A DNA stretch of 64,000 nt from positions 32,001 through 96,000 of the IMG/VR virus record IMGVR_UViG_3300006056_000001, one strand, 5' to 3'. Within the stretch, counting starts at the first letter, position 1, and every line of letters begins with the position of its first letter. The notes under the pieces are model-generated. The model was given only the letters and a program-made list of their open reading frames with translations. It did not search any database and had not been told where the DNA came from. The DNA is from a virus (lineage: Duplodnaviria; Caudoviricetes). Positions 1,760 through 22,092 of the stretch are shown in pieces. A program made the position numbers and the translations under genes.

Positions 1760-4700
1760 TCGTTACCCCAGAAATCATCTAATATTTTTCTAGCTCCTTC
1801 TTGTAATTTTCTGCTAGAGTAGTATGCACCAAAAGCAGATAGTCCCCAGATAGAGTCCTCAGATTCAAGACCGGCTATGAAAGGAGTACCATTAAATATT
1901 AATGGAGAAAGAATAACAGGTAATTGATCTACGTCATTACTACTTTCTATAAAGGCAGGTATGACTGTAGATTTATAAGACATGTGCGTACCCCACTGTG
2001 CTCCTGCAATTAAAGCTTGATTTACAAAATAAGACTTAGCAGGGCCTCCTATTGTCTTTACAATACTTGTAACTAGCTGCATTGGATTTTTAGAGGCAGT
2101 AATCATTTCAGGTATCTTATTCTTTAATGTATCTTTTGCTACATTTTTATATATGTTCCAAGTTTCATTTATACCTCCTTTTATTCCTCCTTTACCAAAT
2201 CTAGTTAGTAATCCCTTTAAGCCTTGTTTTACAGAAAATTGACCTAGAGCTAAAGGAGCAGCGCCACCTACCGTGGATACTATTAAAGCTAAAGTCAATG
2301 CGTCGCTTACAGCATCAATGGTATTATATACAAACTGATAAGTAGTCTCCATGATAGCAGTATGTAAAATGCCTGCTCCTGGATTTGCATCACACACAGC
2401 TTGAGGAATTATGTTAGTAATCCATCCTTGATCTGAGTTCCAATGGTGTACTAAGCTTTCAACTTCTATTGGCCCGGACATCTTAGTATAGGCGTCTGAT
2501 ATAATAATTCTATCATATGGTTTCATATTCTTACCTATTAAGGTAAGCGTACCTCTATACATTTTCTTAACACCTTCTGCTAAGTGGTGGCATGCTAGCT
2601 TAGCTGCTAGATCAGGATTCTGACAATTAAGCTCTGTAAAGACTTGTATCTTTTTATTTGATAGAGTTAATCCAGGATGAAACTGTAGTCCTATAACTCC
2701 AGTAACCTCATTTCTAGGATAATAAACCCATTCAATACCAGCACCAATTCTACCTTCTCTATAGACCTGTTCTTCAGACTCTACTTGGGATTCTGCTGAA
2801 CCAGGCTTAGGATGTTCTATTACTACTGTATTCCACATTTCTCTTGTAGTAGCTACAATACTATTTTTTATAATACTATGGTCGCTGTCTACAAAGTGAT
2901 GCATTCTAAACACTTTCATATTAGGAGCAAGCTGTTTAGAATTATCTAGTGACTTAACCTTCTTTGAAGCTTCTGTATCATTTAACAAATATTGACTAAA
3001 GAAATAAACAAACCCTTTAAACAAGATTAATGTATCATCTATGCTTTCGTTGTTTATTCTATAAGACACATAATTATTCTTGTCTACTTCTTTAAGTTTA
3101 TTAATAACAAGATCCCACACATATGTAAATATTTTTCTTACATCTTTTTGATTGCGGTTATACTCTTTATATTTCCTTAAGCTTGTTGCATGCTCTGGTA
3201 TTAATTTGATTAATTCATCTAGTATATAATCTAATCTGCTTGGTCTTCTTACGTTGGTTGCATATTCTAGCTTTATATAATCTTTAATAGCTTCTAATTC
3301 TGCTCTCTTAGAAGCATTACTTTTTAGACTACTAAGTCTATTAATTAATTCTAGATTTTTTACTGTAACATCATTACTTAATATTTGATCTACATCTTGT
3401 ACAACACTAGGCCAAAATTGATATATCTTGGAATCTTCTATTCCAAAAAACACACCCGCCAGATTAACAGAAATATTTGAATCTCCTATTGAAGATTTTA
3501 CTCTATCTAAATACACAGCAGGAATACTAGAAGATAATAACTTCTTATATATGTTCTCTGTTAGTATTGATTTACCAAAAACAGAGTCTAATAGTTTTTT
3601 AGAGTCTTGTATATAATTTCTTAATTCTTCATAGGACATGAAAGAATAGAAGTCATTAAATGTTGTTTTTACAAAGTTAGCAATCTCTTCTTCTATTTTA
3701 TTACTACCTGGGGTAGGTGTAAAATTAATAAGTAGTTCTAGATTAGAAGGTCCATAAGACTTGTAAAAAGAAGTACTTTCAAAAGATTTAAGCAAAGAGC
3801 CTATTATTTCTTTTGTGTTGGCTAATTTTTGCTTTTGATTGTCTTTGTATTTTTTATTAGTATATGCGTTTCCTCTTGTATAGAAATAAGGCTGGTCAGG
3901 ATGTCCCATGAAGATGGTAGCTTCTCCATCATAAGGAACTACATCTACAATACAATTCCAAGCATGCCTGCTAGCCTCTTTTAAAACGTCCCAGGCTGGC
4001 TGTAGAGGTACTATCCAACTGTCGTTATGCCATGCAGGCATGACACCAAAGACGCTTCTTAAGCCAAATGGGTTGCTATAAAGAGCAGTATCAGGATACC
4101 ATATATTTTTTAATCTGGTGTCAAATCCTTTATCATCTTTGTCTATGCTTCTTCGTCCAATAGATCTAGCTAACCAATTATTTGCATCTCCTAGTAAAGA
4201 TCTTTCCCCTACGTTTTCTAAGTCTATATTTTGATTGTTTTCTATAGATCTATTAAGTACTTCATCTACCGCTTCTGGATTAAGATTCTTTAGGATATAG
4301 GCGGCGTCATGTTCAGGAAAGAACTCTCCAAAGCCTTCTGGATTAGCATATGTTATAGCTTGAATAGCTAAATCTCTAGCTCCCCAGTTCTTTGGATCGT
4401 CACAGTTAAAGCTTACTTGTCTATTAATTAATTCTGCTTTCCATCCTTGAGCTACAATAGTCAGCTCATCACCAGGAACAATTTCTGTGATTCTTCCCGT
4501 AAAAGTAATAGGAAGATTGTAAGCCATAGAAGAGTAGCCCATCCTTATTTGAATAGCTCTTCCTTGTATAAGCTTATATCTCTTTATATAACTGTCTTTA
4601 TCTGGTCCTCTTAGACTACCTAATACTCTTGTTTCATTTTCTGTTTTGTAAGTGTTTTTGTTTTCAAAGTAAGAGCTTTGTAAATGGTAAAGAGGATCTG

Positions 4701-7700
4701 CTAGTTTTATAACAGCTAATGGAGCATCTTCTTTGTCCATTGTAATGTCTATAGAAAGGATAGAAGATACTGAAAAGATAGAGTCATCTGCAATTAAATC
4801 GTTACCACGCTTGTCAATTAAATATACTTTGACAGCAGGGAACATTCTTTCTGGTCCATAGATGTCATCAGTTATTTGATCTATAGCTGAAGTAATACAC
4901 TTTTGTGTAGAGCTGTCTAAGTGACGATGAAATTCTATTTCTTTGTCTATAGGTGTTTTAAATACAGAGTCTGCATCTAGTCTTGGTAATATATCTGTTG
5001 TAAGTAATTTTGCTTTGCTTATTACTCTATATATCTCTCCACCTAATCCTGGAACAGTTACTTCTCTAGGTATAGAATAGTTTCCTTGGTGGTGTAGATA
5101 AAGCTTAATATTATCTTTACCTCCATAATACTTATCTTCAAACTTACTGGCCAACTTTACATAGTCTTCTCTAAATCCAGAAGGATTGCTTTTACTAAAT
5201 TTCTCTAAAGAATTAGTAATCAATTCAGAAAGAGTACTATCAGCTATTTGATAGCTTTTACTACCAGGAACAGACGTTTTCTTTTCTCTTATAAGTCTTT
5301 TTATGTCTTCTATTTCTTCTGTGTTGAAAGGAATAGACAAAGACATCTGTTCACTTACTTTGTTTGTGCTTTCTACAGATTCTTTTGCTATTTTTCTTAG
5401 TTGATCTTTTGTTCTTGTTTTATAAAACCATGCGGCTGGAGAAACAAGGTCTTCTCTATTTACACAAGGTTTACTTCTGTCTTCTACATATTCTAAACCT
5501 AAATCATCAAAAGAAGGAGCAAACTGTTCCCACTGATCTTCAAATAACTGATAGTAAGTAGGAAGAAGCAGATCAGGATAGAGACCTTGTATGTCTTTAC
5601 TAAAATTAGAGATTTCTTTTCTGTATTCTTGTTCCACGGGTTGCTTCTCTAAACTATATTTTGTTATCAGTTTATAGAAGGCTGTGTAGATTCCGTCTGT
5701 AGAGTATATGTAAGGAAGCTGTATGTCCTTTGGTTTTCTTTCTATAATTACATTAAAAAGTGCATCTTTAAAAGAATTTGAAAACCTAATATTGGATTTA
5801 GATAGTTTATCAAAAATTATACTTGTATAAGTATTACCTATTAGTCCAGAAGTTCTATTTCCTAAATAAGAGCCAGTAATATACTGTGCCATTTCTACAT
5901 AGAATTTTTCTGAATCAGATCCTGTGTACTCAAAACAGTTTTTCACTATATTTAATATTGCATTATATATGTCAAAATACTGTTCTTCTTTTCCAGATAC
6001 ACCACTTATTATACTGAATAAGATAGGTAGATTTTTTAATTGATCTGTAATGTTTATCTTTCTATTAGCTACATACTTGCCTACTGCTAAAGGCTCTTTT
6101 AATAGAGCTTCTTTTATACTATTAGTTGAATCTACTTTTCTATGTATTAGAGCTGCTCGTAGAGTATCTGCATTTAATATACCAAACTTAGAGTCTTTCT
6201 TTATATCAGTTAAGCTTTTTTCTACAGGCCAGAAAGCAATGTAGGCTTGATACAACTCATCATTATTCATAACAGAATCAAGAAGAGCTGACGTACCTCC
6301 TTTAGCACGGAACTGTATTTCTTTATCTGTAATATTGTCATAAAACTTACGTAATTCCTTTAACTCAGTTCCACCTGATATTAAAGTCATTTCAGAAGTT
6401 TCAGCTATTCTTATATTATTTTCTAAGAAGTCTACTTTAACATTTATTACATTTGGTAGATCTGTAGTTTCACTATCAATACTAAGAGGAACAAATATAG
6501 TTTCTCCCGGAGCAACAAGGGGCTTCTTATATGTCGTTGAATATAAAAGCTTTGTTACAGGGCTTTTAATGTTCCATCCATATATTCTATCGAACCTCTC
6601 TAAACTTTTATTTATAACATCAGATGTTTCTTTGAATTTACAGAAGTTTAAGAACTCTCTATTACTAGATTGATTATTAAATACAATGTCAAAAGACAGG
6701 CTCTTTCCTGACACACCCATGTGTGTTGCAAAAGAGTAGATCTTTCCTTGTAGTTTATTAAATGCAAACTTGTGGGCAAAAGAGCAACTTTCTGATAGAA
6801 GTATTCCTTGACTTTGTTTGTTGGTTGTTATATCCAACGTAACTTGTTCTTGTGGGCCGGCTATAGGGTTCCCTACTGTGTCTTTTCCATACCAACTAAT
6901 AGTTGTCTTTTGAAAGTCTTCTTCAGAAAGGAATGGAACTTGAGAGTTATCTAAAACCTGATTAATCCATTTAGTAAGCCAATGTGCTCCTCTTGGATAT
7001 TCTACAGGCTCTCCATTTTCTCCTAAGTAAAATAGACCTTCAGATTCTGATATAGGACTTATATCTATTCTAGATATAGTAAGAGTTGCTTGTAAAGTAT
7101 TAACTAGATCTGGAACATTTTCTATGTCTATTCGTTCTAAGGCAACAGGTACATAATTACTATAGTATTTGTTTTGTTTTAAATCTTGTGGACTTAAAGG
7201 TTCTACCATAGAACCAAAACTATAAGGCAGGGTAGAATCATTAAATCCTTTTAAAACAGGAGCTACATTGTTACTAGACAGGTTTTTATTAAGATTTTGA
7301 ATTAAGTATTCATTGTATGTAGCAAAAGAGTTGTCTAGTAAACTAGTTACAGTTGTGCCTCCTACTGTAGCTGCTTGTACAGCCTTATTTAATTTACTGT
7401 TATCTGCAATAAGTTGCTTTACTTTTTCATAGTTTTCTTTATCATTTAGGACATCTTGGTTTTTCCATGCAGAAGTCAAAAATTCATTCTCTAAAGAAAC
7501 TATAGGACAGCTTTTAAACAAAGCTATTAGTGCTCTTAAGCCACTTTGTCCATCGGAATTAACTCCTGCATTTATCTCTTCTAGCCCTGTGAAGATAAAT
7601 CTTATTTGAGCCCTATGTAAAGAATCTCCAGAGTCTACTACAAAGAAGTTGCTAGACCTAGTAGTCTCTAAAATTTTGACACCCTTTCTTTCTTGAAGTG

Positions 7701-7770
7701 CTATTTTTTGAACAGCATGTGTATACTTTAAGGGGCCTATGTAAAGCTCAGAGCTATTTCTTAAGTTCAT
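1756..7770 (-). CDS. Large virion protein with baseplate hub (gp27/gpD-like) region
   Basis: 2004 aa; GRAIQIRMGYS...FTGRITEIVPGDELTIVAQG and C-terminal YRGTLTLIG..MKPYDRIII..EVESLVHHWN..GWITNI are hub-type patterns; upstream of wedge genes. Confidence 0.6.
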   Translation of the reverse strand: MNLRNSSELYIGPLKYTHAVQKIALQERKGVKILETTRSSNFFVVDSGDSLHRAQIRFIFTGLEEINAGVNSDGQSGLRALIALFKSCPIVSLENEFLTSAWKNQDVLNDKENYEKVKQLIADNSKLNKAVQAATVGGTTVTSLLDNSFATYNEYLIQNLNKNLSSNNVAPVLKGFNDSTLPYSFGSMVEPLSPQDLKQNKYYSNYVPVALERIDIENVPDLVNTLQATLTISRIDISPISESEGLFYLGENGEPVEYPRGAHWLTKWINQVLDNSQVPFLSEEDFQKTTISWYGKDTVGNPIAGPQEQVTLDITTNKQSQGILLSESCSFAHKFAFNKLQGKIYSFATHMGVSGKSLSFDIVFNNQSSNREFLNFCKFKETSDVINKSLERFDRIYGWNIKSPVTKLLYSTTYKKPLVAPGETIFVPLSIDSETTDLPNVINVKVDFLENNIRIAETSEMTLISGGTELKELRKFYDNITDKEIQFRAKGGTSALLDSVMNNDELYQAYIAFWPVEKSLTDIKKDSKFGILNADTLRAALIHRKVDSTNSIKEALLKEPLAVGKYVANRKINITDQLKNLPILFSIISGVSGKEEQYFDIYNAILNIVKNCFEYTGSDSEKFYVEMAQYITGSYLGNRTSGLIGNTYTSIIFDKLSKSNIRFSNSFKDALFNVIIERKPKDIQLPYIYSTDGIYTAFYKLITKYSLEKQPVEQEYRKEISNFSKDIQGLYPDLLLPTYYQLFEDQWEQFAPSFDDLGLEYVEDRSKPCVNREDLVSPAAWFYKTRTKDQLRKIAKESVESTNKVSEQMSLSIPFNTEEIEDIKRLIREKKTSVPGSKSYQIADSTLSELITNSLEKFSKSNPSGFREDYVKLASKFEDKYYGGKDNIKLYLHHQGNYSIPREVTVPGLGGEIYRVISKAKLLTTDILPRLDADSVFKTPIDKEIEFHRHLDSSTQKCITSAIDQITDDIYGPERMFPAVKVYLIDKRGNDLIADDSIFSVSSILSIDITMDKEDAPLAVIKLADPLYHLQSSYFENKNTYKTENETRVLGSLRGPDKDSYIKRYKLIQGRAIQIRMGYSSMAYNLPITFTGRITEIVPGDELTIVAQGWKAELINRQVSFNCDDPKNWGARDLAIQAITYANPEGFGEFFPEHDAAYILKNLNPEAVDEVLNRSIENNQNIDLENVGERSLLGDANNWLARSIGRRSIDKDDKGFDTRLKNIWYPDTALYSNPFGLRSVFGVMPAWHNDSWIVPLQPAWDVLKEASRHAWNCIVDVVPYDGEATIFMGHPDQPYFYTRGNAYTNKKYKDNQKQKLANTKEIIGSLLKSFESTSFYKSYGPSNLELLINFTPTPGSNKIEEEIANFVKTTFNDFYSFMSYEELRNYIQDSKKLLDSVFGKSILTENIYKKLLSSSIPAVYLDRVKSSIGDSNISVNLAGVFFGIEDSKIYQFWPSVVQDVDQILSNDVTVKNLELINRLSSLKSNASKRAELEAIKDYIKLEYATNVRRPSRLDYILDELIKLIPEHATSLRKYKEYNRNQKDVRKIFTYVWDLVINKLKEVDKNNYVSYRINNESIDDTLILFKGFVYFFSQYLLNDTEASKKVKSLDNSKQLAPNMKVFRMHHFVDSDHSIIKNSIVATTREMWNTVVIEHPKPGSAESQVESEEQVYREGRIGAGIEWVYYPRNEVTGVIGLQFHPGLTLSNKKIQVFTELNCQNPDLAAKLACHHLAEGVKKMYRGTLTLIGKNMKPYDRIIISDAYTKMSGPIEVESLVHHWNSDQGWITNIIPQAVCDANPGAGILHTAIMETTYQFVYNTIDAVSDALTLALIVSTVGGAAPLALGQFSVKQGLKGLLTRFGKGGIKGGINETWNIYKNVAKDTLKNKIPEMITASKNPMQLVTSIVKTIGGPAKSYFVNQALIAGAQWGTHMSYKSTVIPAFIESSNDVDQLPVILSPLIFNGTPFIAGLESEDSIWGLSAFGAYYSSRKLQEGARKILDDFWGNE

Positions 7771-10700
7771 TTATTTTTCAACGTCTTAGAGGCTATATCT
7801 TTTTTGATCTTATTTAGATCTTTGTAATTACTTGTCATTAAATTAATGACGTTTTTACTAAACTGTACATTGCGTATGTTTTCTATAATATTTTGCGACC
7901 AGAATTGTTTGTCTAGAGATGGAAGAGATACAAGATCTTGATTAATATTAGCCAGTTGTTTCATTATTCTGACTGTCTCATCTTCTTCTATTTCAGGCTC
8001 TTCTTCATTACTAAAGAAGAACTGATTAGGAGGGAATGACTTATCTCCTTCATTAAAGTCTAAATCAGGTACTTCTGGAGCAGGATTATTAAAGTAAGTT
8101 ACTCCTACATCACTACCGGATATAGAAAGGCTAAAACTATTTATATTAACTATAATTGGAATAACAGTAGAAACTGTTACATCTGCTGCTGTTATACTTT
8201 GTACATGTACTTGGTCTAATCCAAATAAAATATATACAGAAGTAGTATTTCCATTAGAGCCTGCGGAAGAAACAGTAAGTACGTTTACATCTGGTGAAGA
8301 AACAGAAGTTTTAGTACTTAAACTAATAGCAGGAATTATACTACTATTTTCTAGTGCATTTTTTGATATAGTTACTTTATATGTACTCGCAGGTAATATA
8401 CTGTTAGAAACTAATGTAGAAAATTCTACTTGACTAAAATAAGTAGTTATAGGAGGTAATACTGATGTAGAATACAATACTCCTATTGTTGGTTTTATTA
8501 CTACTGTGCTTGGCGGAAGTACAGAAGAACAGGATAGTTGTCCTAAAGCAATTTGTATATTTTTTGATATACTAGGTATTACAGAATTAGATGTAGAAGA
8601 AGAAACAGATATTCTTTCTTTATATGTAGCCGGTGGTATTACAGACGAACTATATATTTCATTTACATCTTTTCTTACTCTTATGGTATGGCTAGGAATT
8701 ACAGAAGTACTTGTAGAAACAGCACCTGTATATATTACGTTACCACTAGTACCTCCACCTGTCGTTTCTGTGAACGACCAATCGGCTAAGGATACGTTTA
8801 GCCATGGACCCTTACTATTTTCATACCATGGAGTAGGTCTATCCCAAAATGTAGATGCTGTTCCATATGCCGTGCTGGTAGCACTTACTGTAGCATCTGT
8901 ACTTAAAGCTGGAGTCGTACTAGAGAAGTATCTGCCAGAACTTGCATGCCCTCCTATTAATAGGCTGCCTGTAAAGTGGTTATATTGTGTGTTTACTTGG
9001 CCTGTATAAGAAGACATAGTGCCTTCTGAAGCACTTAGTAATCCAAATACAGAGTCAAGAATTTCACTGTTTTCTATTAAGTCAGTAGAGCTTACTTCTA
9101 ATCTAGAGATGTAAGAGTCTCTTATTAATATATTTTTTGTTATATTACTAGAGGAGGCATAATAAAATGATCTAGGGCCGTCATTTATTCCTCCGTCATA
9201 ATAATTGACAAATGCAATTCCTGACATGTTGCTTGTAGATCCAAATATACCTTGTGTTTCCCAAGCAGGAAAAACTGCAAAGTTACTTATAATAAAGTTT
9301 TGTACAGGATATGATTCAGTTTGTATGAACTGGAAAATATCTGAGTGAGGTCCCCAAGTGTTATAGTTAGTTGTAGTATTTCCTACTCTTAAGTTACCAT
9401 TAGTAACTGTAGCACTAGCATCACTTTCTGGGGTTAAGTTGTTAGCTGATCCTGTAGTAATAACATCTACCCAAGGTAAACTTCCTGAGTAACCACCACT
9501 GAGAAATCCTACTGCCATATTGTTATTAGTACTAGTAGTAAAGTTTTCTAATCTAATACCAAGAACAGGGCTACCACTAAGGTAGGCTAAAGCAGGTACA
9601 AAGTCTTGTCCCGCGTAACCTGCGTTAGCTTGAATTCGATATCTAGAAGTACCAATATTTTCTATTCTAAAACTACCTTGTGCTTCAAACCTTCCACTAA
9701 CACCTACTTCTTGATAGATGTCAGTAACTAAAATATTGACTAAGGCGCTATTTCTATATTGTGGTTGGAAGACCTGTCCTGCAAATTTGTCTATCCAACA
9801 TCCTCTTACAATATCTCCCCATTGACCGCCACCGAAAGTACATCTTCTAATAGACCCTGAAACAAAGATTCGGTCTATCATGTCTTTTTTATTAGGTATA
9901 TCTACTGATCCAGCTACTGTTTCTATAGATCTAATGTGAAGTCCAGTACCTAGTACTGCTTGATCAAAAGGAGCAGGAGGAGCGCTTATACAGTGATCTA
10001 TCCATATATGCATTTCTCCATATGACCATGGACCTACTTTAAACCCAGGGTTTACAATAGTTATGTCAGAAAATCTAACTCTTGCTTGTCTTAGACCTGG
10101 AGAGTCAGTTCCTTTAAAGTACATCCAGTTATTACTAAGATCTTCATTACTAGCTAAGCTAATTAATTTTACATCATCTCTAGATAAGCCTGCTTTGGGC
10201 AGAACTGTAAGCCAATGATGTCCACTAGTATATAATTCTTGATTTTGTCCGAAATTAGTGCCTGTAACTTTATGTGATCCGGCCGCATTAACATAGATAG
10301 TTGCTCCACCACAATCGTTAGATGTAGATGCAAGCTGAGCAGCTTTCTCAAAGCTTTTAACAGGAAGAGAAGTAGTTAATCCACTATTACTATCACTTCC
10401 TCCATTCCAGTCCCAATAGATAGTTTTTGGACTTGGTCTTCTATCTGTACCGTCTTTATCATTATAAATTCTGACTGTACTTAGTGTTACAGATTCTCCA
10501 CTACCGCCGTAGACCGTAGGTATTACATCTATGTATCCTGCAGCATAACTGGCCATTTCTATCTTAATTCCAAAGCACCAAATAGGTGATGGACCTCCTC
10601 CCCAGCTTCCAGGGAGAGGATCATCATACTCAGAGTCATTTGGATACCACATTGCTCTACTAGTAACACTTGTTGTAGAGCTGCCTCCTCCGTTTGAAGA

Positions 10701-10835
10701 TATAGCAAAATCTACTCTGTCTATGTCACCTAAAGCAATAGGGTGATATGCTTCTACAAGAACATTGTAGAACTCTGAAGAAGAAGTCCTTCTAATTCCT
10801 GTTTGACTTATAACGCTACAAATTGGTAGTGGCAT
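7767..10835 (-). CDS. Virion-associated right-handed beta-helix protein (putative depolymerase/adhesin) with C-terminal S/T/V-rich repeats
   Basis: 1022 aa; IYWDWNGGSDSNSGLTTSLPVKSFEKA is the pectin-lyase-fold cap motif; HSDIFQF; ~20-aa repeats SxSV(I/L)P in the C-terminal third. Confidence 0.6.
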   Translation of the reverse strand: MPLPICSVISQTGIRRTSSSEFYNVLVEAYHPIALGDIDRVDFAISSNGGGSSTTSVTSRAMWYPNDSEYDDPLPGSWGGGPSPIWCFGIKIEMASYAAGYIDVIPTVYGGSGESVTLSTVRIYNDKDGTDRRPSPKTIYWDWNGGSDSNSGLTTSLPVKSFEKAAQLASTSNDCGGATIYVNAAGSHKVTGTNFGQNQELYTSGHHWLTVLPKAGLSRDDVKLISLASNEDLSNNWMYFKGTDSPGLRQARVRFSDITIVNPGFKVGPWSYGEMHIWIDHCISAPPAPFDQAVLGTGLHIRSIETVAGSVDIPNKKDMIDRIFVSGSIRRCTFGGGQWGDIVRGCWIDKFAGQVFQPQYRNSALVNILVTDIYQEVGVSGRFEAQGSFRIENIGTSRYRIQANAGYAGQDFVPALAYLSGSPVLGIRLENFTTSTNNNMAVGFLSGGYSGSLPWVDVITTGSANNLTPESDASATVTNGNLRVGNTTTNYNTWGPHSDIFQFIQTESYPVQNFIISNFAVFPAWETQGIFGSTSNMSGIAFVNYYDGGINDGPRSFYYASSSNITKNILIRDSYISRLEVSSTDLIENSEILDSVFGLLSASEGTMSSYTGQVNTQYNHFTGSLLIGGHASSGRYFSSTTPALSTDATVSATSTAYGTASTFWDRPTPWYENSKGPWLNVSLADWSFTETTGGGTSGNVIYTGAVSTSTSVIPSHTIRVRKDVNEIYSSSVIPPATYKERISVSSSTSNSVIPSISKNIQIALGQLSCSSVLPPSTVVIKPTIGVLYSTSVLPPITTYFSQVEFSTLVSNSILPASTYKVTISKNALENSSIIPAISLSTKTSVSSPDVNVLTVSSAGSNGNTTSVYILFGLDQVHVQSITAADVTVSTVIPIIVNINSFSLSISGSDVGVTYFNNPAPEVPDLDFNEGDKSFPPNQFFFSNEEEPEIEEDETVRIMKQLANINQDLVSLPSLDKQFWSQNIIENIRNVQFSKNVINLMTSNYKDLNKIKKDIASKTLKNK

Positions 10836-13800
10836 TAGTATGTATAATCACTGTTAGATATTTCCCTCATTTGTCTTTCAAGTAAATAAGGGTTATTTGA
10901 TGCAGATCTTTCTCTTATGGTAATATTAGAACTACCCGAGTTAGAAATTCTATAAGGACCAACAGAAGAAGGAGATAGATTTTCTCTTCTTCTAGATGCT
11001 GTAAAACTTTGATTAGTACCATAAACTTTAGCCGGCCTAGATGGGTATATAGGATCTGGAGCCAAATCTTCTGGCTGTCGGACATCTATATCTCTAGGCA
11101 TAGAAGGACCTGACATAAGAGAGACTAGTGCTCCTCCCATGACCGCTCCTGCTCCTAAGCCTGCTAAAAATTTATTGTTTGTTGCAAACTTCTTAGCTGC
11201 TAAATATTTTGATCCAGTCTTAGCTGCTTGTTTCTTTTCTTCATGTTCTAGAATAGTTTCAGCAAATTTGTTTTGTGCTATAGATTCTGGAGCACCTATT
11301 ACACCTCTCATTAGTCCTAGAAGCTCTTCGTCTTCTGTTCCTTCTTTTATAGTCTTTTGTAAAACACTTCTTATTGTACTAGGTTGTTTAGTAACAGAAG
11401 CACTAAGTACAGCTCCAACACCTACATAGGATCCTAGGAGTCTTGCAGTCTTTGAAATAACATTTGCTTCTGCTCTAGCCAGCTCTTCTTTAGAAGCTCT
11501 GGTTAGATCTCCTAGTAAAAGATCTGTAGTTTGTTTATCTAACATGCCTTTATTGGCCATCCAATCTAAGGCCATAAAAGCTCTTCCTTTTTCATTCTTT
11601 AAGAAGTCTTCAAACAGAGCAGATGCTTCTGTCTCTACTGTTTCTAAATCAAAAGAAGTTCTTCTATACTTTTGTCCAAGATTTATAAGTCCTTCGCCTA
11701 ATCCAGTTAGGCCCGCTTTTGTATGTCCCTTCTGAACTGCACCTTGGTACATGCTTTGCATTAACTGCTGTATTACAGATACTTTTTCTGGATCATTAAA
11801 TTTACTAACTATATTATCTATAATAGATGAAGGAATGCCTCTATCTAAAACACCCATTTTCTTGGCGCCTTCGGCACCATAAGCAGTTATGTTAGCCATG
11901 ATCTCATCAGAAGATCTTACCATACTGTATCCTAAAGATTTAGGCACACCAATAAAATCTTCTATATAATCTACTGCTTTAACAAAAGGTTTGGTAACTA
12001 AGTGGTTTACTAATTTTGACAATCTTCCTGCAGAAGTAGCAGAACTTGCTACTTCTAACTGTCTATTATAATACTTAACGAATGGACTAATTTTGCTAGT
12101 TTGTCTTGCAAATCTATCTTCTAAAGCTGTAGGATCTGCAAGCCCTTCCATAGAGATTAAGTTTACTACGTCACGGTCTATATCTCTTTCTACAGATCTA
12201 TGAAACAGTGGGTTTAACGTAATATTTAATTGACCAAAGAAAGAAGGAACACCAGATTTCTTGATGTGTATTTTTTGTAACATCATGTGTTCTGCTCTTT
12301 GAGCAGGATCCACACCTACTACTCCATAGAAATACCCTCGTTTCTTTACAGCATCTAATGTAGCTTTTCTATTTTCTGTGTTAGCAGGCCCTGATTTTCT
12401 TAGATACCAGTCTTTAAATCCTTCTTCACTTATATAAGAAGTATAAAATTTCTTAGGATCTAGTAAGTCTGACTTATTAAAGCCGCCTAATGTATCTGGT
12501 GAAATTCTTGCTCTAGTTCCAAATTTAATATGTAAGGTATTTGTTTTAGCAAAGATACCATCTCTTCCAGCTAAAGATTTTACAATACTACTATATTGTA
12601 AAGGACTAGATGAATCAAAACTTCTACCAGATTCTAGTTCTATTAATGACTTTAAGAACTCATGTCCGGTGTGTGACTTACCTACTGTGGTGTATCCGTG
12701 TGCTCCAGGAGTAGCTCTTAAGTACTGTAAGGGTATAGGTAAATATCTCATTTGTCTTTCTTCACCTAATACACTAATTTTTCTGGCGCTTCCTAAATCT
12801 AAGTAAGCCAGATCAGTATTTAATCCAAGAGCCGTATCTTTAAGTAAGTCTTTGTGTACTCCGCCTGTAGAATGAGCAAAAGCAGATATAGAAGGAAGTC
12901 TAGCTAATGGACTACCATTCAACTCTAGCCCACCCTTACCTAAGGTTAATATAGTAGATGAAGCATCTAAGCCAGGTGTTCCTAACAAAGCAGAGGCAAA
13001 TCTATGTAATGTGTGGTTTCTAGAGAGTGTTAATTGGTTAGATCCTTGTCTAATTCTTATTAAACCTTTTGACCAAACATCATGTTTAGAAGTTAATCCG
13101 GCAAACACAGGATCATCATATGAAGAAGAATAGCCAAGTAGTCTAGATGAATTAGCAAGAATTTGCATCTTAGATAGAGTCATTCTTACTCCTTTCATCA
13201 TATTTATATCACCCATGAAGTCCGATCTACGTCCTCCACGCATACCAAATATTTTGATTCCTTTGACTCCTTGTATTGGCAATGAGGCTTCTTCTCCATA
13301 TTCTACTCTGTTAGCAAGTAACTTTAAGGATAGATTATCACTTTTCTTCCATTCATTAAGCTTAGCAGTTGCTTGTAGGAATGCAGTGTTTGCATCTGTT
13401 ATTTCTGGAACATATGTTGATTTAGATCTTTGTACTTTTTCAACAAGATTGTTTCCAAAAGTATCTCTAAGTAATGCTTCTCCTTGAGGGTGTTGTCTTA
13501 ACTGATGTATGAAGTTTGTAGTTAGTACGTCTTGCCCGTGGGTCTTAGCAAACTCATCTGCTGCAATAACGTAGTCTACGCCTAGTCTAGATGCTAGATC
13601 TTTTAAATGACTTCTTCCTATTCTACCACCTGTAAATCTTCTTCCACCTACAACTGTTTCTATAGTCTCAGGTATGACTTTTTGTCCAGACAAGAAGCTT
13701 AATTCTATCTTATCTGGTGTCATTCTTATTTGATTTAATGTAGCTTGATTATTTGCTATTTGTAGTAGCAATCCTCTATTGTATCCTTTAGGTCCTAGTA

Positions 13801-15193
13801 TTTTTCTTATCAGTTTTTGTCTATCTGTTAAATCTCCACCAGATAGTGCTGCTCTAACATCTGCCTTTGTAAAGGCACTTGATGCATCTACTAATTGATC
13901 TCCTTTTGCAAGGTTCACTCCAAACAATTCTTCTATTGCAGATGTAACAGATGTATTAGGAGAAGAGATTTTCATCGTTCCTACGGGTGCTCGGAAAGCC
14001 AGTTTATTGGCTCCAGAAGCAGTCATGTAGGCGCCACCTTCTCCAAAGAGTAATCTAGAGTACTGTTCGTTTTCTAAGTCTACTACAGCTACTCTTAACA
14101 TCTGTTCATCAGCCATCTTAGACAACTGATGCAATCCTTTCTTAGCTGTGTGTTCTTCTATTAAAGTACCATATTTAGTAGCATATTCTTTTCCTGCTAC
14201 TAAGAACTTTTTCTTATTACCTAGGAAATCAGCCTTCCCATAGATGTAAGACTCGTCTAAACCTAAATGTTTTAAAAAGGTAGGTAAGGACTGGCTGAAA
14301 TACTCTTTTCTATATTGCTGTATAAGCTCTAGAGCTTCTGGTGTGTTAAGATCTTTATTTCTAGAAACTCTCTTAAGATCATTATACACAGATCTTCCAA
14401 CTGTCTTAGACATCATAGAGAATGCAGAGGTTGCTATTCTATATTTTGACAGTTTATCTGCGAACAGAAGGCCTTCGTCTGAATAACCTACAACCGCATT
14501 TAGGCTAGAGGCATATCCTTGTTCAAAAGGACTTTGTAGTCCTCTAGATGTTGTGCCTGATAGTGTTATAGAGCCTAATCTTAGATTATTAATATTAGGC
14601 ATGTCTTTAACAGACAGGCGGTAGTCTCTTATCTTATTTAAGGCTCCAGAAAGAGCTAAATGAGGATAGTCTCCTCGATAAGAATCTATAGACTGTGCTA
14701 TTAATTTTTCTGCACTAGAGTAATAAGTACTTAAATAACTTTTCCTTTCAAAAGAAGATTCTCCAGCATAGCCTACTAAAAGACTATTTACTTTTCTACT
14801 TCTGCCTCCTATATCAATTCCACCAAATGTATTAGCTGTTGGAAGGAACGCGGACCTTCCACTTGAGTATAAAAACAGAGCATTAGTCTTTTCGTTAAAA
14901 CCAACTTGCCCACCTACAGACTTTATTCTTTCAAATACATTTCTTGCTTCTTCTGGTACTAATCCTGACTTATGTAGTTTTTCAAACATAAAGTCAATAT
15001 TTTTACCAAAAGCTAGCTGACTTCCTTCTTCTAAATTATATGTATCTCCTTTTCTTAAGACATCCCTGTAAGAGCTAGTCTTACCCGCGCTTAGGATCTC
15101 TATAGCGGAAGCTTTCTCTTTAAACGTACTAGGCGGTCTTCCTAAGCCTAAAACATCTGTAATTGTTCTGTAGATAGGGTTATCTTGTGACAT
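10835..15193 (-). CDS. Virion protein: diverged single-chain two-barrel RNA polymerase homologue (beta + beta' motifs)
   Basis: 1452 aa; colinear matches to beta (MLRVAVVD...FGEGGAYMT; GVDYVI...GQDVL; KGVRMTLSKM) and beta' (YLPIP..LR; LAGRDGIF...GTRARISPD; ITLNPLFHRSVERDIDRD). See findings. Confidence 0.65.
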   Translation of the reverse strand: MSQDNPIYRTITDVLGLGRPPSTFKEKASAIEILSAGKTSSYRDVLRKGDTYNLEEGSQLAFGKNIDFMFEKLHKSGLVPEEARNVFERIKSVGGQVGFNEKTNALFLYSSGRSAFLPTANTFGGIDIGGRSRKVNSLLVGYAGESSFERKSYLSTYYSSAEKLIAQSIDSYRGDYPHLALSGALNKIRDYRLSVKDMPNINNLRLGSITLSGTTSRGLQSPFEQGYASSLNAVVGYSDEGLLFADKLSKYRIATSAFSMMSKTVGRSVYNDLKRVSRNKDLNTPEALELIQQYRKEYFSQSLPTFLKHLGLDESYIYGKADFLGNKKKFLVAGKEYATKYGTLIEEHTAKKGLHQLSKMADEQMLRVAVVDLENEQYSRLLFGEGGAYMTASGANKLAFRAPVGTMKISSPNTSVTSAIEELFGVNLAKGDQLVDASSAFTKADVRAALSGGDLTDRQKLIRKILGPKGYNRGLLLQIANNQATLNQIRMTPDKIELSFLSGQKVIPETIETVVGGRRFTGGRIGRSHLKDLASRLGVDYVIAADEFAKTHGQDVLTTNFIHQLRQHPQGEALLRDTFGNNLVEKVQRSKSTYVPEITDANTAFLQATAKLNEWKKSDNLSLKLLANRVEYGEEASLPIQGVKGIKIFGMRGGRRSDFMGDINMMKGVRMTLSKMQILANSSRLLGYSSSYDDPVFAGLTSKHDVWSKGLIRIRQGSNQLTLSRNHTLHRFASALLGTPGLDASSTILTLGKGGLELNGSPLARLPSISAFAHSTGGVHKDLLKDTALGLNTDLAYLDLGSARKISVLGEERQMRYLPIPLQYLRATPGAHGYTTVGKSHTGHEFLKSLIELESGRSFDSSSPLQYSSIVKSLAGRDGIFAKTNTLHIKFGTRARISPDTLGGFNKSDLLDPKKFYTSYISEEGFKDWYLRKSGPANTENRKATLDAVKKRGYFYGVVGVDPAQRAEHMMLQKIHIKKSGVPSFFGQLNITLNPLFHRSVERDIDRDVVNLISMEGLADPTALEDRFARQTSKISPFVKYYNRQLEVASSATSAGRLSKLVNHLVTKPFVKAVDYIEDFIGVPKSLGYSMVRSSDEIMANITAYGAEGAKKMGVLDRGIPSSIIDNIVSKFNDPEKVSVIQQLMQSMYQGAVQKGHTKAGLTGLGEGLINLGQKYRRTSFDLETVETEASALFEDFLKNEKGRAFMALDWMANKGMLDKQTTDLLLGDLTRASKEELARAEANVISKTARLLGSYVGVGAVLSASVTKQPSTIRSVLQKTIKEGTEDEELLGLMRGVIGAPESIAQNKFAETILEHEEKKQAAKTGSKYLAAKKFATNNKFLAGLGAGAVMGGALVSLMSGPSMPRDIDVRQPEDLAPDPIYPSRPAKVYGTNQSFTASRRRENLSPSSVGPYRISNSGSSNITIRERSASNNPYLLERQMREISNSDYTY

Positions 15194-18100
15194 TATCTTA
15201 GCCTGTCTTTAATTTCTCTAGTCTTGTCTAAAGTATATTCGCCTTCTAAGTATCTATTAGATCTATTAGGTGTAGAGAATCTTTTTATCTTAAAATTACC
15301 TTTAGATACTTTATAGTTTTGTTCCATGATAAAAGAGTCAAAATTTGAATACAAAGGAGACTGAACAAAGTTTATTTGTTGATTACCAAACTCTTTTAAT
15401 CTAGTTTTTAAATCTACTTCATGAGATTCATAGAAACCATATCTATGTATGTTATCAGAAACACCATTTATACCATGTTCTATAAATCTTAATCTAGTTG
15501 CTGCATTAGATATTTCAGGAGTCCATCCTAACCAAGAACTATCAGGAATCTGATTTTGATTGATAAAATCAAGTGCTATTTGGTCAGATTGATCTCTATC
15601 ATTAAAGTTACCTGCCCATGTTTGAGTTAATCCTCTAGTCATGAACTCAGGTAAACCTCTTAGTATTTGCGCTCGAATCTCTGGGTCTTCTTGAGACACA
15701 AAGTAGTCAAAATACTTACGGTCTGCAGATCTAGGTAGTGAAGCTCTATATCCTATAGTATTTTTTGCTCCAACCATTGTTCTATCTGCAAACTGTGGTC
15801 CTCCTCCTGCTTCTTGTATCATTCTGCCTTTTATATACCCTATGGTATCCATATACTCTATAGCATCATTTTCTTGACGTATATGATAAGGAAGAGAGTC
15901 TTCTCCTCCCATACCTACCATTCTTGCAGTGCTAAGGCCTGCTCCTAGGACAGCTCCTCCTTTAATAGCTCCTATGTTCACCATAGCGCCTCCAGTAGGG
16001 CCTACAATCGACTTAATAGGAGTGAACCACCTCATGGGTCCAGATAATAAGAACCCGAATGTAGCGCCTTTACCGGCTGCTGTAAGTGGGTCTTCTAAAG
16101 CAGTATCATAAAGGGCCGGTCGAATAACGTCTTCCCAAGGAGTATTCCAGGAAGCATATTCTGATCCTTCTACGTACATTTTTCTATACTGTTCGTATGG
16201 ACTTCTAAATGGAAAAAATTTACTACCTAAGTAAGGAATTTCTGCTAGGACATCATGTGTCAAGAAATCATATGCTTTTCTTACAGGAGCATAAATACTT
16301 TTTGCAATAGTATTCATGTTTAAAGCTATTAGGTCTTCTTCGTACCTTTTATATCTTGTGTCAACTCCAATAACTTCACTTCTATTCTCTATAGCTCTAT
16401 CTACTTTTTCTTTCCATTCATCTTCTAGCCCCATATTTAATACTATCTTTTCATATTTTTTATATGCCGCACTATAAGGAGCTACATCAGATAGTATCAA
16501 AAATTTATCAACATCGCTATAGACACCTGATCTTCCAGAGTGTAGTTTATTTAAGGCCTCGTATCCAACACCTGGTAATCTTGCTTCTCCATCCGCTATC
16601 TTAATAAATGGATCTCCCATATGGAAGTCAACAAAATAATCTCTATCTCTACCTCCTGTAGAATTAGATCCAGGAAGCCAACCAGGCATATTATTAAGTA
16701 TTGGATTGACCATTGCAGATCTTCTATACTCAGCACTATAATCAGAAAGCATATATCTTCTGATAAGCTCTGTTTGTCCAAACATTCCGTTTATAGCAGA
16801 GTCATATAGTAATCTACCGGGATCTTTCATTATGGCGCTTGTGGCATACTGTGTACCTATATCAGGACCAAAAGTAACACCAAAGAAGCTCATTGCAAAT
16901 TTATAAATACCTAGTGGCTCAGTAGCAATATTTGCTTGCTTAGCCATTGTATTTAAAAGACTCATTGGATCTTCTGCTTCGTAGGATGTAGCTGCCATAG
17001 CAGGCATACCGTACAACCTAGCTGTATTGGCAGTTAATCCTCTTTGTGCTAATCCTGCTTCTAGTAAAGGAAGTCTATCCGGCTCTCTATATCTAGTAGG
17101 CTTCATTAATTGACCAACTGTTGCACTTAATATTGGGCCAAATTCAGGGAACCTACTTAGATCAGATTCTGTGCTAATATAAGGTCTATCATTATAGTGT
17201 CTTTCTTCTAGCCTATATGGGTTGAGTATATTAAGTACTCCAAACAAGTTAGAAGGAGTAGGGAAAGGTATTCCAAAGACGTTCGCATGATAAGACCAAT
17301 ATTCTGACTTATCTCCATACATAGATTTTGTTCTATAATCAGAAGTCAGTTTATTATACCAACTAGATTCATATCTATCTGGTTTACCTCCAAAGAAAGG
17401 AAGGTAGCCTAATCCCCAAAGTCTACCTTTTCTGACAGGTACTTTTCTATCTCCACTATACTCTTCCATCAATTCTGATGGACTTTGGCCAGGATCTGGA
17501 CCTCCGATTGCTGCATATGTTCCTGCGCCAGCTAGTAATCCTTTTAAGAAACCTCCTCTTTTAAATACAGCATTTGCTGCAGCTATTGGAGCCCCAAGGC
17601 TTCTTAACACATAAGAACCATCTGAGTTAACAGATCCCGGGAAATAAGTGTCTAGGAAATTGCTAGCTGCGCCTATACCTGTTATTTGACGTGCATATTG
17701 TTGTGCAACTCTAGCTCCTGCATACAAAGAAGCAACTGCTTTTATAGGAGAGATTCCTGTGAACTTCTCTGTTAAATAATCTGCATATAAACCTGCTTGT
17801 TTAGCTGTTTCATATGCAACAGGTACTAAAGAAGACCGAATTAAGTTTTTTACAAAGCTATGATCTGGCTTCATTCCTATGCCTAATAAAGACTCTGACA
17901 TAAGACTATTCAAGCGATATAGTCCATACGTACTAACATCTCTTATACCATTCGCTGCCCTCTTTAATCTACTTCCGCCTTCTATGTCATAATAAGCATA
18001 TCTATTAGACACAGTAGGGAATCCTACTGCTGTTAGGTCTCCTTTGTCTATATCCGACATTAAGTTAACCATACTATTAGTCGTAATAGTTTTACCTGTG

Positions 18101-19560
18101 ACTTCATAACTTCCTTTCTTTACAGGTATGACTAAGTCTTGAGAAATTAAAGCTCCTCTTATATTTCTAGAATATTCCTGATAACTTCTTTTCTTGACTA
18201 TACTAACATCATCTACTATGTCAAATAGTACTCCTACTCTATTTGGGATTAACTTTGTAGAACCAGAAAGGTCTTGGAGTCTTGTTACTCTTCCTCCTCC
18301 CGGTACTTTAATATATCCTCCGCCTACTTTAGCTAGTTCTGGTAAGTCTCCTCCTAGAACGCTATCTAATACTTTAGATACAGCAAAATTATGCTTATAT
18401 GGATTATGCATAATAATACCTGTACCTTCTCTAAGAGACTTCAATCTCTTATAAGGGTTAATAGCAAGCTTTTCTATTAAAGTAGGTCTAGTAGAGAATG
18501 CAGGACCTATGCCTAAATTCTGCTCCATCCACCCTATTATTTTACCAAAAAATCCAGTTCTATTTGGTAAAGATATTTCTAATCTTCCTTGTCTAGATGC
18601 ATCTATTACTTCAAAAGGATTTCCGGTCTTTCTTAAAGACCTTTGTGTTCCTAGTAATGTTTCTTTATATTTTCCTGTAGAGGGGTTAAGACTATATCCA
18701 TAAACATTGCCTCCAATAAATACTCTGCTTCCGTTATAATTGTCTCCTGGTCCTAAGACTGCAATATTTCTAGGAGATCTAAATAAAGAACCAAGAACTT
18801 GGCCTTGACCAAACATATCAAATCTAGCAGATCTTTGATAAATAGTTTTTCCATTAATTTCTATAGGGGATACTGTACTTAATATGTTTCTAAGTCTGAC
18901 ATCTAGTACTTCTTTTCTTCCTTGATGTAAGAATATTTTAGAATCTAATATTTGATTAGATTGAACTAATCCAAGCTTATGTGCTTTTTCTACAATTCCA
19001 TATTGCTCTCCCCCTAATACACGAGACCAGTTCTTTTGATCAGAAAGAACGTCTCCAAAGGTAACCCTTTGTAAGGACTGAGGGAAGAAGCCGGTGTTGT
19101 TTCCATAATTAGCTAAAGCTCTATTTGTATACTCTACAGTCCTTTTTCCAATAGCGTCTGATATAGTCTGTCTATTATTTGATGCATTAAGGCCCATCAA
19201 CTCAATAGAGTTTCTTAAGTCATCTATAATATCTATAGGACCAAGATTGACTTGTTTCTTGTTAAAGTCATAATTAAAATCTAATAAAGATCTTAGTCCT
19301 GTAGTATTACCTTTTATAGCAGACTTTCCTGTATTAGCTGCTACATCTCCTTCTAAGTTTATTCCTTTTACCATTCCTAAGAAGTTAAATAGATTGTCAC
19401 TTAAACGTCCCCCATGGGCCAATCTACTTCTTAGTAATAACGCTCCAAGACCAATAGTACCTATACCTGCAACGAGAGGATTAATCCAATTGCGATTCTG
19501 TTGAATTGCATTAGTTCTTTCTACCTCTTTTTGCTGATTAATATAGTTACTATTATCCAT
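15193..19560 (-). CDS. Large virion protein at the tape-measure position (tape measure / ejection protein candidate)
   Basis: 1455 aa directly after the tail chaperones; several Gly/Ala-rich hydrophobic segments; no enzyme motif recognised. Confidence 0.5.
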   Translation of the reverse strand: MDNSNYINQQKEVERTNAIQQNRNWINPLVAGIGTIGLGALLLRSRLAHGGRLSDNLFNFLGMVKGINLEGDVAANTGKSAIKGNTTGLRSLLDFNYDFNKKQVNLGPIDIIDDLRNSIELMGLNASNNRQTISDAIGKRTVEYTNRALANYGNNTGFFPQSLQRVTFGDVLSDQKNWSRVLGGEQYGIVEKAHKLGLVQSNQILDSKIFLHQGRKEVLDVRLRNILSTVSPIEINGKTIYQRSARFDMFGQGQVLGSLFRSPRNIAVLGPGDNYNGSRVFIGGNVYGYSLNPSTGKYKETLLGTQRSLRKTGNPFEVIDASRQGRLEISLPNRTGFFGKIIGWMEQNLGIGPAFSTRPTLIEKLAINPYKRLKSLREGTGIIMHNPYKHNFAVSKVLDSVLGGDLPELAKVGGGYIKVPGGGRVTRLQDLSGSTKLIPNRVGVLFDIVDDVSIVKKRSYQEYSRNIRGALISQDLVIPVKKGSYEVTGKTITTNSMVNLMSDIDKGDLTAVGFPTVSNRYAYYDIEGGSRLKRAANGIRDVSTYGLYRLNSLMSESLLGIGMKPDHSFVKNLIRSSLVPVAYETAKQAGLYADYLTEKFTGISPIKAVASLYAGARVAQQYARQITGIGAASNFLDTYFPGSVNSDGSYVLRSLGAPIAAANAVFKRGGFLKGLLAGAGTYAAIGGPDPGQSPSELMEEYSGDRKVPVRKGRLWGLGYLPFFGGKPDRYESSWYNKLTSDYRTKSMYGDKSEYWSYHANVFGIPFPTPSNLFGVLNILNPYRLEERHYNDRPYISTESDLSRFPEFGPILSATVGQLMKPTRYREPDRLPLLEAGLAQRGLTANTARLYGMPAMAATSYEAEDPMSLLNTMAKQANIATEPLGIYKFAMSFFGVTFGPDIGTQYATSAIMKDPGRLLYDSAINGMFGQTELIRRYMLSDYSAEYRRSAMVNPILNNMPGWLPGSNSTGGRDRDYFVDFHMGDPFIKIADGEARLPGVGYEALNKLHSGRSGVYSDVDKFLILSDVAPYSAAYKKYEKIVLNMGLEDEWKEKVDRAIENRSEVIGVDTRYKRYEEDLIALNMNTIAKSIYAPVRKAYDFLTHDVLAEIPYLGSKFFPFRSPYEQYRKMYVEGSEYASWNTPWEDVIRPALYDTALEDPLTAAGKGATFGFLLSGPMRWFTPIKSIVGPTGGAMVNIGAIKGGAVLGAGLSTARMVGMGGEDSLPYHIRQENDAIEYMDTIGYIKGRMIQEAGGGPQFADRTMVGAKNTIGYRASLPRSADRKYFDYFVSQEDPEIRAQILRGLPEFMTRGLTQTWAGNFNDRDQSDQIALDFINQNQIPDSSWLGWTPEISNAATRLRFIEHGINGVSDNIHRYGFYESHEVDLKTRLKEFGNQQINFVQSPLYSNFDSFIMEQNYKVSKGNFKIKRFSTPNRSNRYLEGEYTLDKTREIKDRLR

Positions 19561-22031: not shown

Positions 22032-22034
22032 ATA

Positions 22035-22071: not shown

Positions 22072-22092
22072 ATATCCTTTAGTAATCAAAAA

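Follow-up and report, generated by a model that had tools for sequence, protein, structure and literature searches.

A gene in the tail module of a large phage encodes what structure models identify as a homologue of the two-barrel RNA polymerases (RNAPs), with the beta-like and beta'-like parts following one another in a single chain. The phage (Duplodnaviria; Caudoviricetes) is represented by IMG/VR record IMGVR_UViG_3300006056_000001, of which positions 32,001 to 96,000 were analysed, a stretch of 64,000 nucleotides referred to here as the window. The gene is a minus-strand open reading frame (ORF) at 10835-15193 of the window, and its product of 1452 amino acids (aa) is called P0001. The reading we favour, at a probability of about 0.6 and from models and sequence conservation, is that P0001 works as a polymerase whose active site is non-canonical but conserved, and that the virion probably delivers it. 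Its family is large and unannotated; in one clade of big myoviruses its genes are invariably found in the tail module, between the gene of a gp145-like virion protein and that of the baseplate hub.

The source record is complete (189,716 bp, with direct terminal repeats), and its genes for a large terminase, a portal, the major capsid protein and a tail sheath mark the phage as a large myovirus with a contractile tail. An earlier sequence-only reading of the window had described an RNAP homologue with a rewired active site, and P0001 holds all the stretches that it named: DIDRD (D1004, D1006, R1007 and D1008 within residues 1004-1008, nt 12170-12184), VGVDPAQR (residues 959-966, nt 12296-12319) and TIETVVGGRRF (residues 510-520, nt 13634-13666). 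Translation of the gene confirmed the placement of DIDRD and the arginine at its fourth position. A bare DxDxD is not significant, since 11 others occur in ORFs of at least 300 aa in the 190-kb genome; this one rises above chance because it comes with an RNAP fold and its three aspartates are invariant in 53/53 relatives. The gene and its main parts are as follows.

10835-15193, minus strand: gene of the single-chain two-barrel polymerase homologue P0001, 1452 aa, with TAATG overlaps at both ends
13124-14194, minus strand: beta-like module (second-largest-subunit-like), residues ~334-690, with double-psi barrel B split by a wall/flap-like insert (model 1)
11414-12538, minus strand: beta'-like module (largest-subunit-like), residues 886-1260, with barrel A (891-1015), bridge-helix-like and trigger-loop-like elements (model 2)
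10838-11413, minus strand: C-terminal 190 aa, with a hydrophobic stretch rich in Gly and Ala, and with S-D-[Y/F]-x-Y at the end of a conserved tail

Structural models

Database searches with the sequence did not name P0001. It had no match in Pfam or PHROGs, none among PDB sequences with phmmer or a 53-sequence profile, and none among ESM Atlas features, and tblastn against 50,697 phage records gave no naming match for P0001 or for a distant relative. The families of canonical beta' and beta (PF00623 and PF00562, curated cut-offs) matched neither P0001 nor anything else in the genome, and matched 14/14 control genomes. A search for T7-type polymerases (PF00940) was likewise without a match in the genome, but the control genomes gave none either, which makes it uninformative. 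No paralogue or other recognisable RNAP was found in the complete 189,716-bp genome, one 662-aa ORF with a K-D-I-D-K-D motif having been left unread. This ORF (G000:C1:151024-153012, plus strand, outside the window) carries the motif at residue 128 and is maybe a second divergent polymerase.

The fold was more informative. Two AlphaFold models were made, model 1 of residues 300-1260 (predicted local distance difference test score, pLDDT, 65) and model 2 of residues 880-1260 (pLDDT 88, predicted template modelling score 0.81, from an alignment of 56 sequences). In Foldseek and VIA searches the top matches of model 1 were RNAP second-largest subunits only, over model residues 17-385 (protein 316-684), and the best was vaccinia Rpo132 (VIA Z 9.9, 250 residues aligned). 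Among 48,161 chains, six reached Z >=8, all of them RNAP second-largest subunits, and bare double-psi barrels came next; minimal double-psi beta-barrel (DPBB) domains aligned to model residues 62-358. For model 2, the 50 best Foldseek matches were all largest subunits at a probability of ~1.0, and in VIA such subunits scored Z 9.8-10.1 over 230-270 aligned residues, with Pol II Rpb1 at Z 10.1 in an alignment of at least 231 residues that spans Rpb1 357-1404. Ranks 1-12 among the 48,161 chains were again all RNAP largest subunits, with lower scores for QDE-1 (Z 6.8), RDR2 (Z 7.1) and gp96 of phage P23-45 (Z 6.3). Residues 11-136 of model 2 align to DPBB domains and correspond to barrel A.

The models of P0001 thus contain the two double-psi beta-barrels of the two-barrel superfamily. 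As modelled, the protein is a homologue with the order beta then beta', structurally closer to the multisubunit type than to the RNA-dependent RNA polymerase (RdRP) or crAss type. An hhalign comparison of the family with a beta' alignment paired the D-x-D-x-D loops and set P963 on P427 (pairwise E 3.2e-4); the 80 rpoBC loci behind the beta' alignment are at least 85% identical in the query region and add little depth. The RNAP homology that the sequence-only reading had taken as its premise is supported by the fold of both models, not by sequence.

A conserved core in two clades

A word-indexed search returned 12 relatives, and a profile search of 1.84 billion representatives returned 72, 48 of them at E <1e-30; the 72 are cluster representatives at 50% identity. 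Conservation was counted over 53 aligned members with identities to P0001 down to 18-20%. Invariant in this set are K352, G353, R519, G633, R656, D658, D662, R896, P963, Q965, H969, R1003, D1004, D1006, D1008, G1088, Y1089, Q1150, V1153 and K1155. Residue 385 is always an acid (Glu in 38, Asp in 15). Position 1007, the fourth of the metal loop, is Arg in 37 members, Lys in 8, Asn in 4 and Met or Ala in 2 each, so that it is basic in 45/53 and Gly in none, and a basic residue stands at 1007 or 1009 in 51/53.

The weak tail of the profile search (P0060-P0082, mostly 1500-2100 aa) forms a distant clade. Wherever the site is covered, in 22 members, the sequence is R-D-x-D-x-D, position 4 being K, L, Q or M, and the Asp triad is present in 22/23 distant relatives. 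An independent alignment of 15 distant-clade proteins recovered matching K-G, F-G-D, R-phi-T, R-x5-D, R-x-R, P, R-D-x-D-x-D and Q-x4-K motifs. The spacings of the shared motifs are equal or nearly so between the clades, and those of R896-P963-R1003 are 67 and 40 residues in both. To judge from this pattern, the core common to the two clades is an active-site core under selection. Loss of the aspartates among homologues, which the sequence-only reading had named as evidence that would count against it, was not seen.

Five homologues from several lineages (P0008, P0019, P0023, P0031 and P0054) start with a fused 3'-5' exonuclease of the RNase_T/DEDD type, which matched PF00929 above cut-off (E 1.6e-9 to 2.3e-15); P0001 itself is without such a domain. 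The distant-clade protein P0065 gave a weak PHROG match to "DNA polymerase exonuclease subunit". Another family member, P0011 (1148 aa), is encoded on a 6.9-kb contig (L005; GCA_054389395.1, JBSWOP010000408.1) binned into a Candidatus Thorarchaeota metagenome-assembled genome, and we consider a phage contig misplaced in that bin likelier than a gene of archaeal origin.

Basic residues around the metal loop

Eight residues are described as invariant in the superfamily, from bacterial enzymes to those of RNAi: the three aspartates of the metal loop, Rpb2 D837, Rpb1 R446 and P448, and Rpb2 K979 and K987 (PMC2919709). The beta'-like module of P0001 contains the following elements.

12287-12310, minus strand: D962-P963-x-Q965-R966-x-E968-H969, in place of the canonical N-R-x-P-x-x-H
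12170-12190, minus strand: metal loop E1002-R1003-D1004-I-D1006-R1007-D1008, aligned by hhalign to N-A-D-F-D-G-D
11906-11932, minus strand: G1088-Y1089-x-x-x-R1093-x-x-[D/E]1096, inside a long helix, bridge-helix-like
11717-11758, minus strand: Q1146...Q1150-G-x-V1153-x-K1155...K1159, a helix-loop-helix, trigger-loop-like

The triad (Rpb1 D481, D483 and D485) is kept in 53/53 members and aligned with that of beta'; R1003 accompanies it throughout, and in 50/53 Glu takes the place of the canonical Asn that lies two residues ahead of the first Asp. The bridge-helix-like motif has a spacing that we take to be that of E. coli beta' G794-Y795...R799...D802, checked by eye against locus L006. The [Y/F]-Q-x-x-[I/V]-x-K of the trigger-loop-like element is also found in the distant clade.

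The loop before the triad is where the family departs most from the canon. Its proline (Rpb1 P448) is present as P963 in every member and in the distant clade as well (P1234 of P0072), and it also pairs with the proline of R-E-P-A-Q in gp036 of Acinetobacter phage ME3. The arginine of R-x-P (Rpb1 R446 / beta' R425 / QDE-1 R962) is absent. The sequence-only reading had aligned it to an aspartate; the canonical [RK]-x-P is indeed lacking, but with P963 set on P427 the arginine position falls on V/A961, one residue away from D962, which occupies the x. Around this position Q965 and H969 do not vary, D962 is kept in 52/53, and R966, three residues past the proline, in 51/53. A survey published in 2024 selected two-barrel enzymes with the filter [RK]xPx{20,100}DxDxD (PMC10770324, Supplementary Data 4). 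Only 7/53 family members and 1/24 distant proteins pass it, at scattered, non-homologous positions, and failure at this filter may explain the missing annotation. The same sequence-only reading had called the glycine of the metal loop invariant and replaced by Arg. Gly never occurs here, but "invariant" was too strong, as crAss-like virion RNAPs are active with Ile or Val (bioRxiv 10.1101/2020.03.07.982082).

For the charge swap between D962 and R1007 proposed in the sequence-only reading, no co-variation was found: D962 is unchanged in 8/8 members without R/K1007, 6 of which have R or K at 1009, and the sole member with N962 retains R1007. To judge from conservation, compensation would come more plausibly from R1003, which does not vary in either clade, from R966, or from the basic residue at 1007 or 1009. 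The last would be a reasonable spatial substitute because it flanks D1008, and R446 of Pol II adjoins the third Asp (PMC2919709); R966 and R1003 could serve likewise. In ME3 gp036, which reads S-R-E-P-A-Q...G-G-D-H-D-Q-D, the arrangement is the reverse of that in the family and the distant clade, where the canonical Arg is missing and R1003 precedes the triad. This suggests a single event of arginine relocation, judged from few independent lineages.

The beta half of the catalytic centre

Four elements of the beta-like module are of interest.

14126-14140, minus strand: K352-G353-x-[H/F/Y]-Q356, with K352 and G353 invariant and also present in the distant clade
14039-14041, minus strand: E385 in F-G-[E/D]-x-G, past the first barrel-B strand; mostly Asp in the distant clade
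13631-13672, minus strand: hairpin P508...E512...G516-G517-R518-R519-F-T521, which includes TIETVVGGRRF; R519 is invariant in both clades
13202-13228, minus strand: R656-x-D658-F-M-x-D662-I-N664, on and directly past the last strand of barrel B, with R656, D658 and D662 invariant

Fold-search ranges anchor the two ends of the module. At the start, protein residue 334 pairs with Rpb2 749, which makes K352 a candidate counterpart of the arginine that contacts the phosphates of the nucleoside triphosphate (NTP; Rpb2 R766 / beta R678), and the spans are similar (326 vs 349 residues). Matches end at model residues 359-361 (yeast Rpb2 1099, human RPB2 1054-1058, vaccinia 1022, Xanthomonas beta 1279), and those to minimal DPBB domains at 356-358. 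Residues 643-657 are therefore placed as the last strand of barrel B, and R656...D662 at the K-H-M/L-V-D-D-K of beta. The R...(5)...D pattern recurs in 14/15 aligned distant-clade proteins. As modelled, E385 is a candidate for the fourth, Mg-B-binding acid (Rpb2 D837).

The basic loop (GDK...GNKG) is harder to place. Between the F-G-E385 turn and the last barrel strand, R519 is the only residue invariant in both clades; R518 is present in 40/53. Laying P508 over E. coli P1062 without gaps (numbering checked on L006) pairs R519 with K1073, G517 with G1071 and I511 with K1065, with E512 adjoining, and brings D540 and K550 within 1-2 residues of D1095 and R1106. We lean towards this mapping, with odds slightly better than even: the 508-521 hairpin would be the basic loop, R519 standing for the second Lys and the non-basic I511/E512 at the first. 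Fold-search anchors and spacing thus favour the manual alignment of the two lysines to E512 and R518/R519 in the sequence-only reading.

Other placements were considered. We rejected a mapping that conflicts with the end anchors, in which R647/R656 would form the basic loop, D662-I-N would correspond to P-D-I-I-x-N-P and R670-M-T to P-S-R-M-T; hhalign support for it (E 0.045) did not stand out from a reversed-sequence control (E 0.08). Hairpin 583-596 was discarded as the basic loop, being variable and deleted in four members.

Genomic neighbourhood

In the tail module the genes run sheath, tube, tube paralogue, 3-4 small genes, a protein of ~1450 aa, the P0001 gene, one or more variable genes, a hub of 2000-2400 aa and Baseplate_J, and this order is kept in all 7 contigs read, including two from the distant clade (P0062, P0072). 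The immediate neighbours in the window are as follows.

15193-19560, minus strand: upstream gene, 1455 aa, homologue of Bacillus phage 0305phi8-36 gp145 (E 1.7e-61) and ME3 gp035 (E 1.5e-30)
7767-10835, minus strand: variable-spot gene, 1022 aa, between polymerase and hub, without a Pfam or PHROG match
1756-7770, minus strand: downstream baseplate-hub/lysin-type protein, 2004 aa, homologue of ME3 gp037

The start of the P0001 gene overlaps the stop of the upstream gene in a TAATG, as does its own stop the start of the next gene. Gp145 of 0305phi8-36 is a virion protein by mass spectrometry, according to its record. The variable spot holds an ORF of 76-147 aa, two of 558 and 515 aa, or one of 1010 aa in relatives. 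The position of P0001 corresponds to that of gp146 in 0305phi8-36, whose annotation reads "hypothetical tape measure"; gp145 and gp146 were themselves considered as RNAP homologues and discarded, having no DxDxD and no profile match. The C-terminal 190 aa of P0001, whose end is conserved in the family as N-P-x-L...S-D-[Y/F]-x-Y, possibly serve in membrane or tail anchoring, membrane insertion or tail loading.

Gly/Ala-rich hydrophobic segments are also seen in the upstream 1455-aa protein. Further upstream, two tube-like genes (228 and 252 aa, 21273-22779, minus strand) match PHROG 9206, "major head protein". The products of 0305phi8-36 gp140 and gp141, of the same family, are also named "major head protein", with the notes "tail tube" and "tail tube paralog", and the PHROG label looks like an inherited misannotation. 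One distant-clade tail module carries two LAGLIDADG homing-endonuclease genes just upstream of its tube-side genes (L090:292-2441).

What the protein may do

In the mechanism we propose, the predicted enzyme would be a virion component, probably sited within or at the lumen of the tail beside its gp145-like neighbour, and would enter the cell with the DNA and make the first transcripts, like the RNAP of P23-45 that is fused to the tape measure protein (TMP) and the crAss-like virion RNAP. D1004, D1006 and D1008 would bind Mg-A, and E385 is the likeliest ligand of Mg-B. Contacts of the canonical Arg with the ribose and the third Asp would probably be assumed by R1003, R966 and/or the basic residue at 1007/1009, and on the beta side R519, aided by R518, would replace the basic loop. 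The bulky residue at position 4 may keep the loop inactive until ejection, as proposed for gp66 of phage phi14:2. Beta' R425 is the main selector against 2'-deoxynucleotides (2'-dNTPs) in E. coli RNAP (bioRxiv 10.1101/2020.06.30.179606), and with this Arg lost an altered sugar selectivity is therefore predicted. The yeast rpb1-R446A mutant is viable, and in QDE-1 the basic-loop pair is R738 and K743, with Arg at the first position (PMC2919709). By analogy with these two cases, gp66 and P23-45, each of the odd features would be tolerable.

Several points weigh against this reading. Sequence searches give no link between the family and RNAPs. Model 1 is mediocre overall, with the metal loop itself at pLDDT <50, and residue equivalences rest on range anchors, spacing and motifs rather than coordinates. 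The beta-side mapping, including the earlier manual alignment of the lysines, is without sequence statistics, hhalign of beta pieces with proteobacterial beta having given no usable alignment. Since yeast does not survive K979R or K987R and E. coli K1065R is unable to elongate (PMC2919709), it is a genuine question whether a basic loop with Arg only, and without the first lysine, could function. Finally, a position in the tail operon is no proof of packaging.

It is improbable, in our judgement, that P0001 is an exapted, catalytically dead RNAP fold, that is, a structural or DNA-guiding ejection protein whose acidic loop binds only metal or DNA. Two of the three "universal" basic residues are out of place, position 4 is never Gly, the C terminus is hydrophobic and Gly-rich, and the corresponding slot in 0305phi8-36 is held by the non-homologous gp146; yet a scaffold has no need for three invariant aspartates, an acid at 385, P963, R1003, R519, K352 or the bridge-helix-like and trigger-loop-like motifs. 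A dead scaffold is disfavoured because the active-site residues are invariant or nearly so down to ~20% identity, most of them also in the second clade. The fusions to DEDD exonucleases point to nucleic-acid chemistry, and gp66 is active despite a non-Gly loop (bioRxiv 10.1101/2020.03.07.982082). Between the dead scaffold and the compensated enzyme that the sequence-only reading had left side by side, the enzyme, perhaps with another substrate, is thus the better reading. That P0001 is active in a different reaction (incorporation of dNTPs or of mixed nucleotides in the manner of a primase or of PolD, RNA-templated synthesis, or mainly nucleolysis) is unlikely, though it draws on several observations: absence of the main determinant against 2'-dNTPs from its position (bioRxiv 10.1101/2020.06.30.179606), Glu for Asn before the triad in 50/53, N-terminal 3'-5' exonucleases reminiscent of proofreading DNA polymerases, and the precedent of PolD that the fold can make DNA (PMC10770324, section 11). 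Set against these, the beta'-like module is nearest to multisubunit DNA-dependent RNAPs (Z 8-10) and not to RdRPs (QDE-1 6.8, RDR2 7.1), all characterised two-barrel enzymes of phage virions are DNA-dependent RNAPs (PMC10770324; bioRxiv 10.1101/2020.03.07.982082), and R966, R1003 and R1007 could re-establish recognition of the sugar.

We give little chance to an active but unpackaged RNAP, expressed late and merely sharing the tail-gene operon. RNAPs outside the virion are also known from jumbo phages and P23-45 (PMC10770324), and the virion location of the family is deduced indirectly, from gene context; but the slot between two homologues of virion proteins is fixed in both clades, the gene is translationally coupled to both neighbours, and an enzyme made only late, with no second genomic copy, would have little to transcribe unless carried to the next cell. 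A bolder form of the active, tail-delivered polymerase is doubtful, though worth stating: the family, a widespread one, would work without the R-x-P Arg and the first basic-loop Lys, using relocated R1003, R/K1007 or 1009, R966 and R518, and its sugar discrimination would be relaxed or changed, for instance for dNTP or mixed incorporation or for primer synthesis at the entering genome end. Evolution would then have found a second way to build the active site of an RNAP.

The family is conserved and diverse, with its 72 representatives at 50% identity, and the cultured relative ME3 has a structural counterpart in the slot. If active, it would extend the known range of virion RNA polymerases to contractile-tailed phages and serve as an experiment of nature to tell which residues of the active site are truly indispensable. 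The evolution of sugar selectivity would also become directly testable, since the missing Arg is the main 2'-dNTP discriminator of E. coli RNAP.

Relation to characterised polymerases

The multisubunit core (beta/Rpb2 with beta'/Rpb1, including the split enzymes of AR9 and PhiKZ) is the best structural match for both halves of P0001. The two have in common the two double-psi barrels in the order beta then beta', the D-x-D-x-D of barrel A with the proline of the preceding loop, the bridge-helix-like G-Y...R...D and the trigger-loop-like hairpin. P0001 differs in being a single, much smaller chain of 1452 aa encoded in a tail module, without a Pfam Rpb1/Rpb2 signal, in having E-R-D-x-D-[R/K]-D for N-A-D-F-D-G-D and no R-x-P, and, in the favoured mapping, in having Arg for Lys in the basic loop and no first Lys.

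Among phage enzymes, gp96 of Thermus phage P23-45 is a virion RNAP fused to the TMP (PMC10770324; PDB 8H2M/8H2N). Like P0001 it is a single-chain two-barrel protein tied to the tape-measure region of a tail, and for both, entry with or through the tail and synthesis of the first transcripts are proposed. Gp96 has a canonical DFDGD and is part of a siphovirus TMP, whereas P0001 is the product of a separate myovirus gene and has only ~190 aa beyond the polymerase core; structurally gp96 matches less well (Z 6.3 and 5.7 vs ~10 for cellular RNAPs), and there is no sequence similarity. Gp66 (PDB 6VR4) of phi14:2, a crAss-like phage, has the loop DFDID, is active and is killed by D-to-A substitution; its loop crystallised in an Mg-incompatible state, read as self-inhibition before ejection (bioRxiv 10.1101/2020.03.07.982082). 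It shares with P0001 the single-chain two-barrel architecture and a non-Gly position 4, and it is virion-delivered, as P0001 is only predicted to be. Gp66 has I/V where the P0001 family has R/K, is QDE-1-like with 2180 aa, travels as cargo in the head of a podovirus-like virion, and matches weakly (barrel B Z 6.9, 98 aligned). YonO of SPbeta is also a single-peptide phage RNAP with few catalytic residues in common with multisubunit RNAPs and is described as without detectable trigger-loop homology (PMC5467207). For YonO-like proteins, retention of the whole invariant set of eight is reported, R-x-P and the pair in the basic loop among them (PMC2919709).

The closest counterpart by position is gp036 of Acinetobacter phage vB_AbaM_ME3 (1603 aa, "hypothetical protein"), which lies in the same slot between a gp145-like protein and the hub. 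Its C-terminal half was the top match in a viral structure library (E 2.6e-4, 444 columns), and it shares a D-x-D-x-D with a non-Gly fourth residue (D-H-D-Q-D) and the A-Q after the proline. It differs in keeping the canonical R-E-P and in having G, not R, before the first Asp, and it has no significant sequence similarity to the P0001 family. In a 2021 survey of jumbo phages, two-barrel RNAPs were assigned only to every phage of group 1 and to two of group 3, ME3 being placed in group 2.2 (PMC7824862). No annotation of the P0001 family was found in the open full-text literature, and its relatives are unnamed or "hypothetical". P0001 thus appears to belong to a known kind, the single-chain two-barrel phage polymerase tied to virion delivery, in a variant that has not previously been described.

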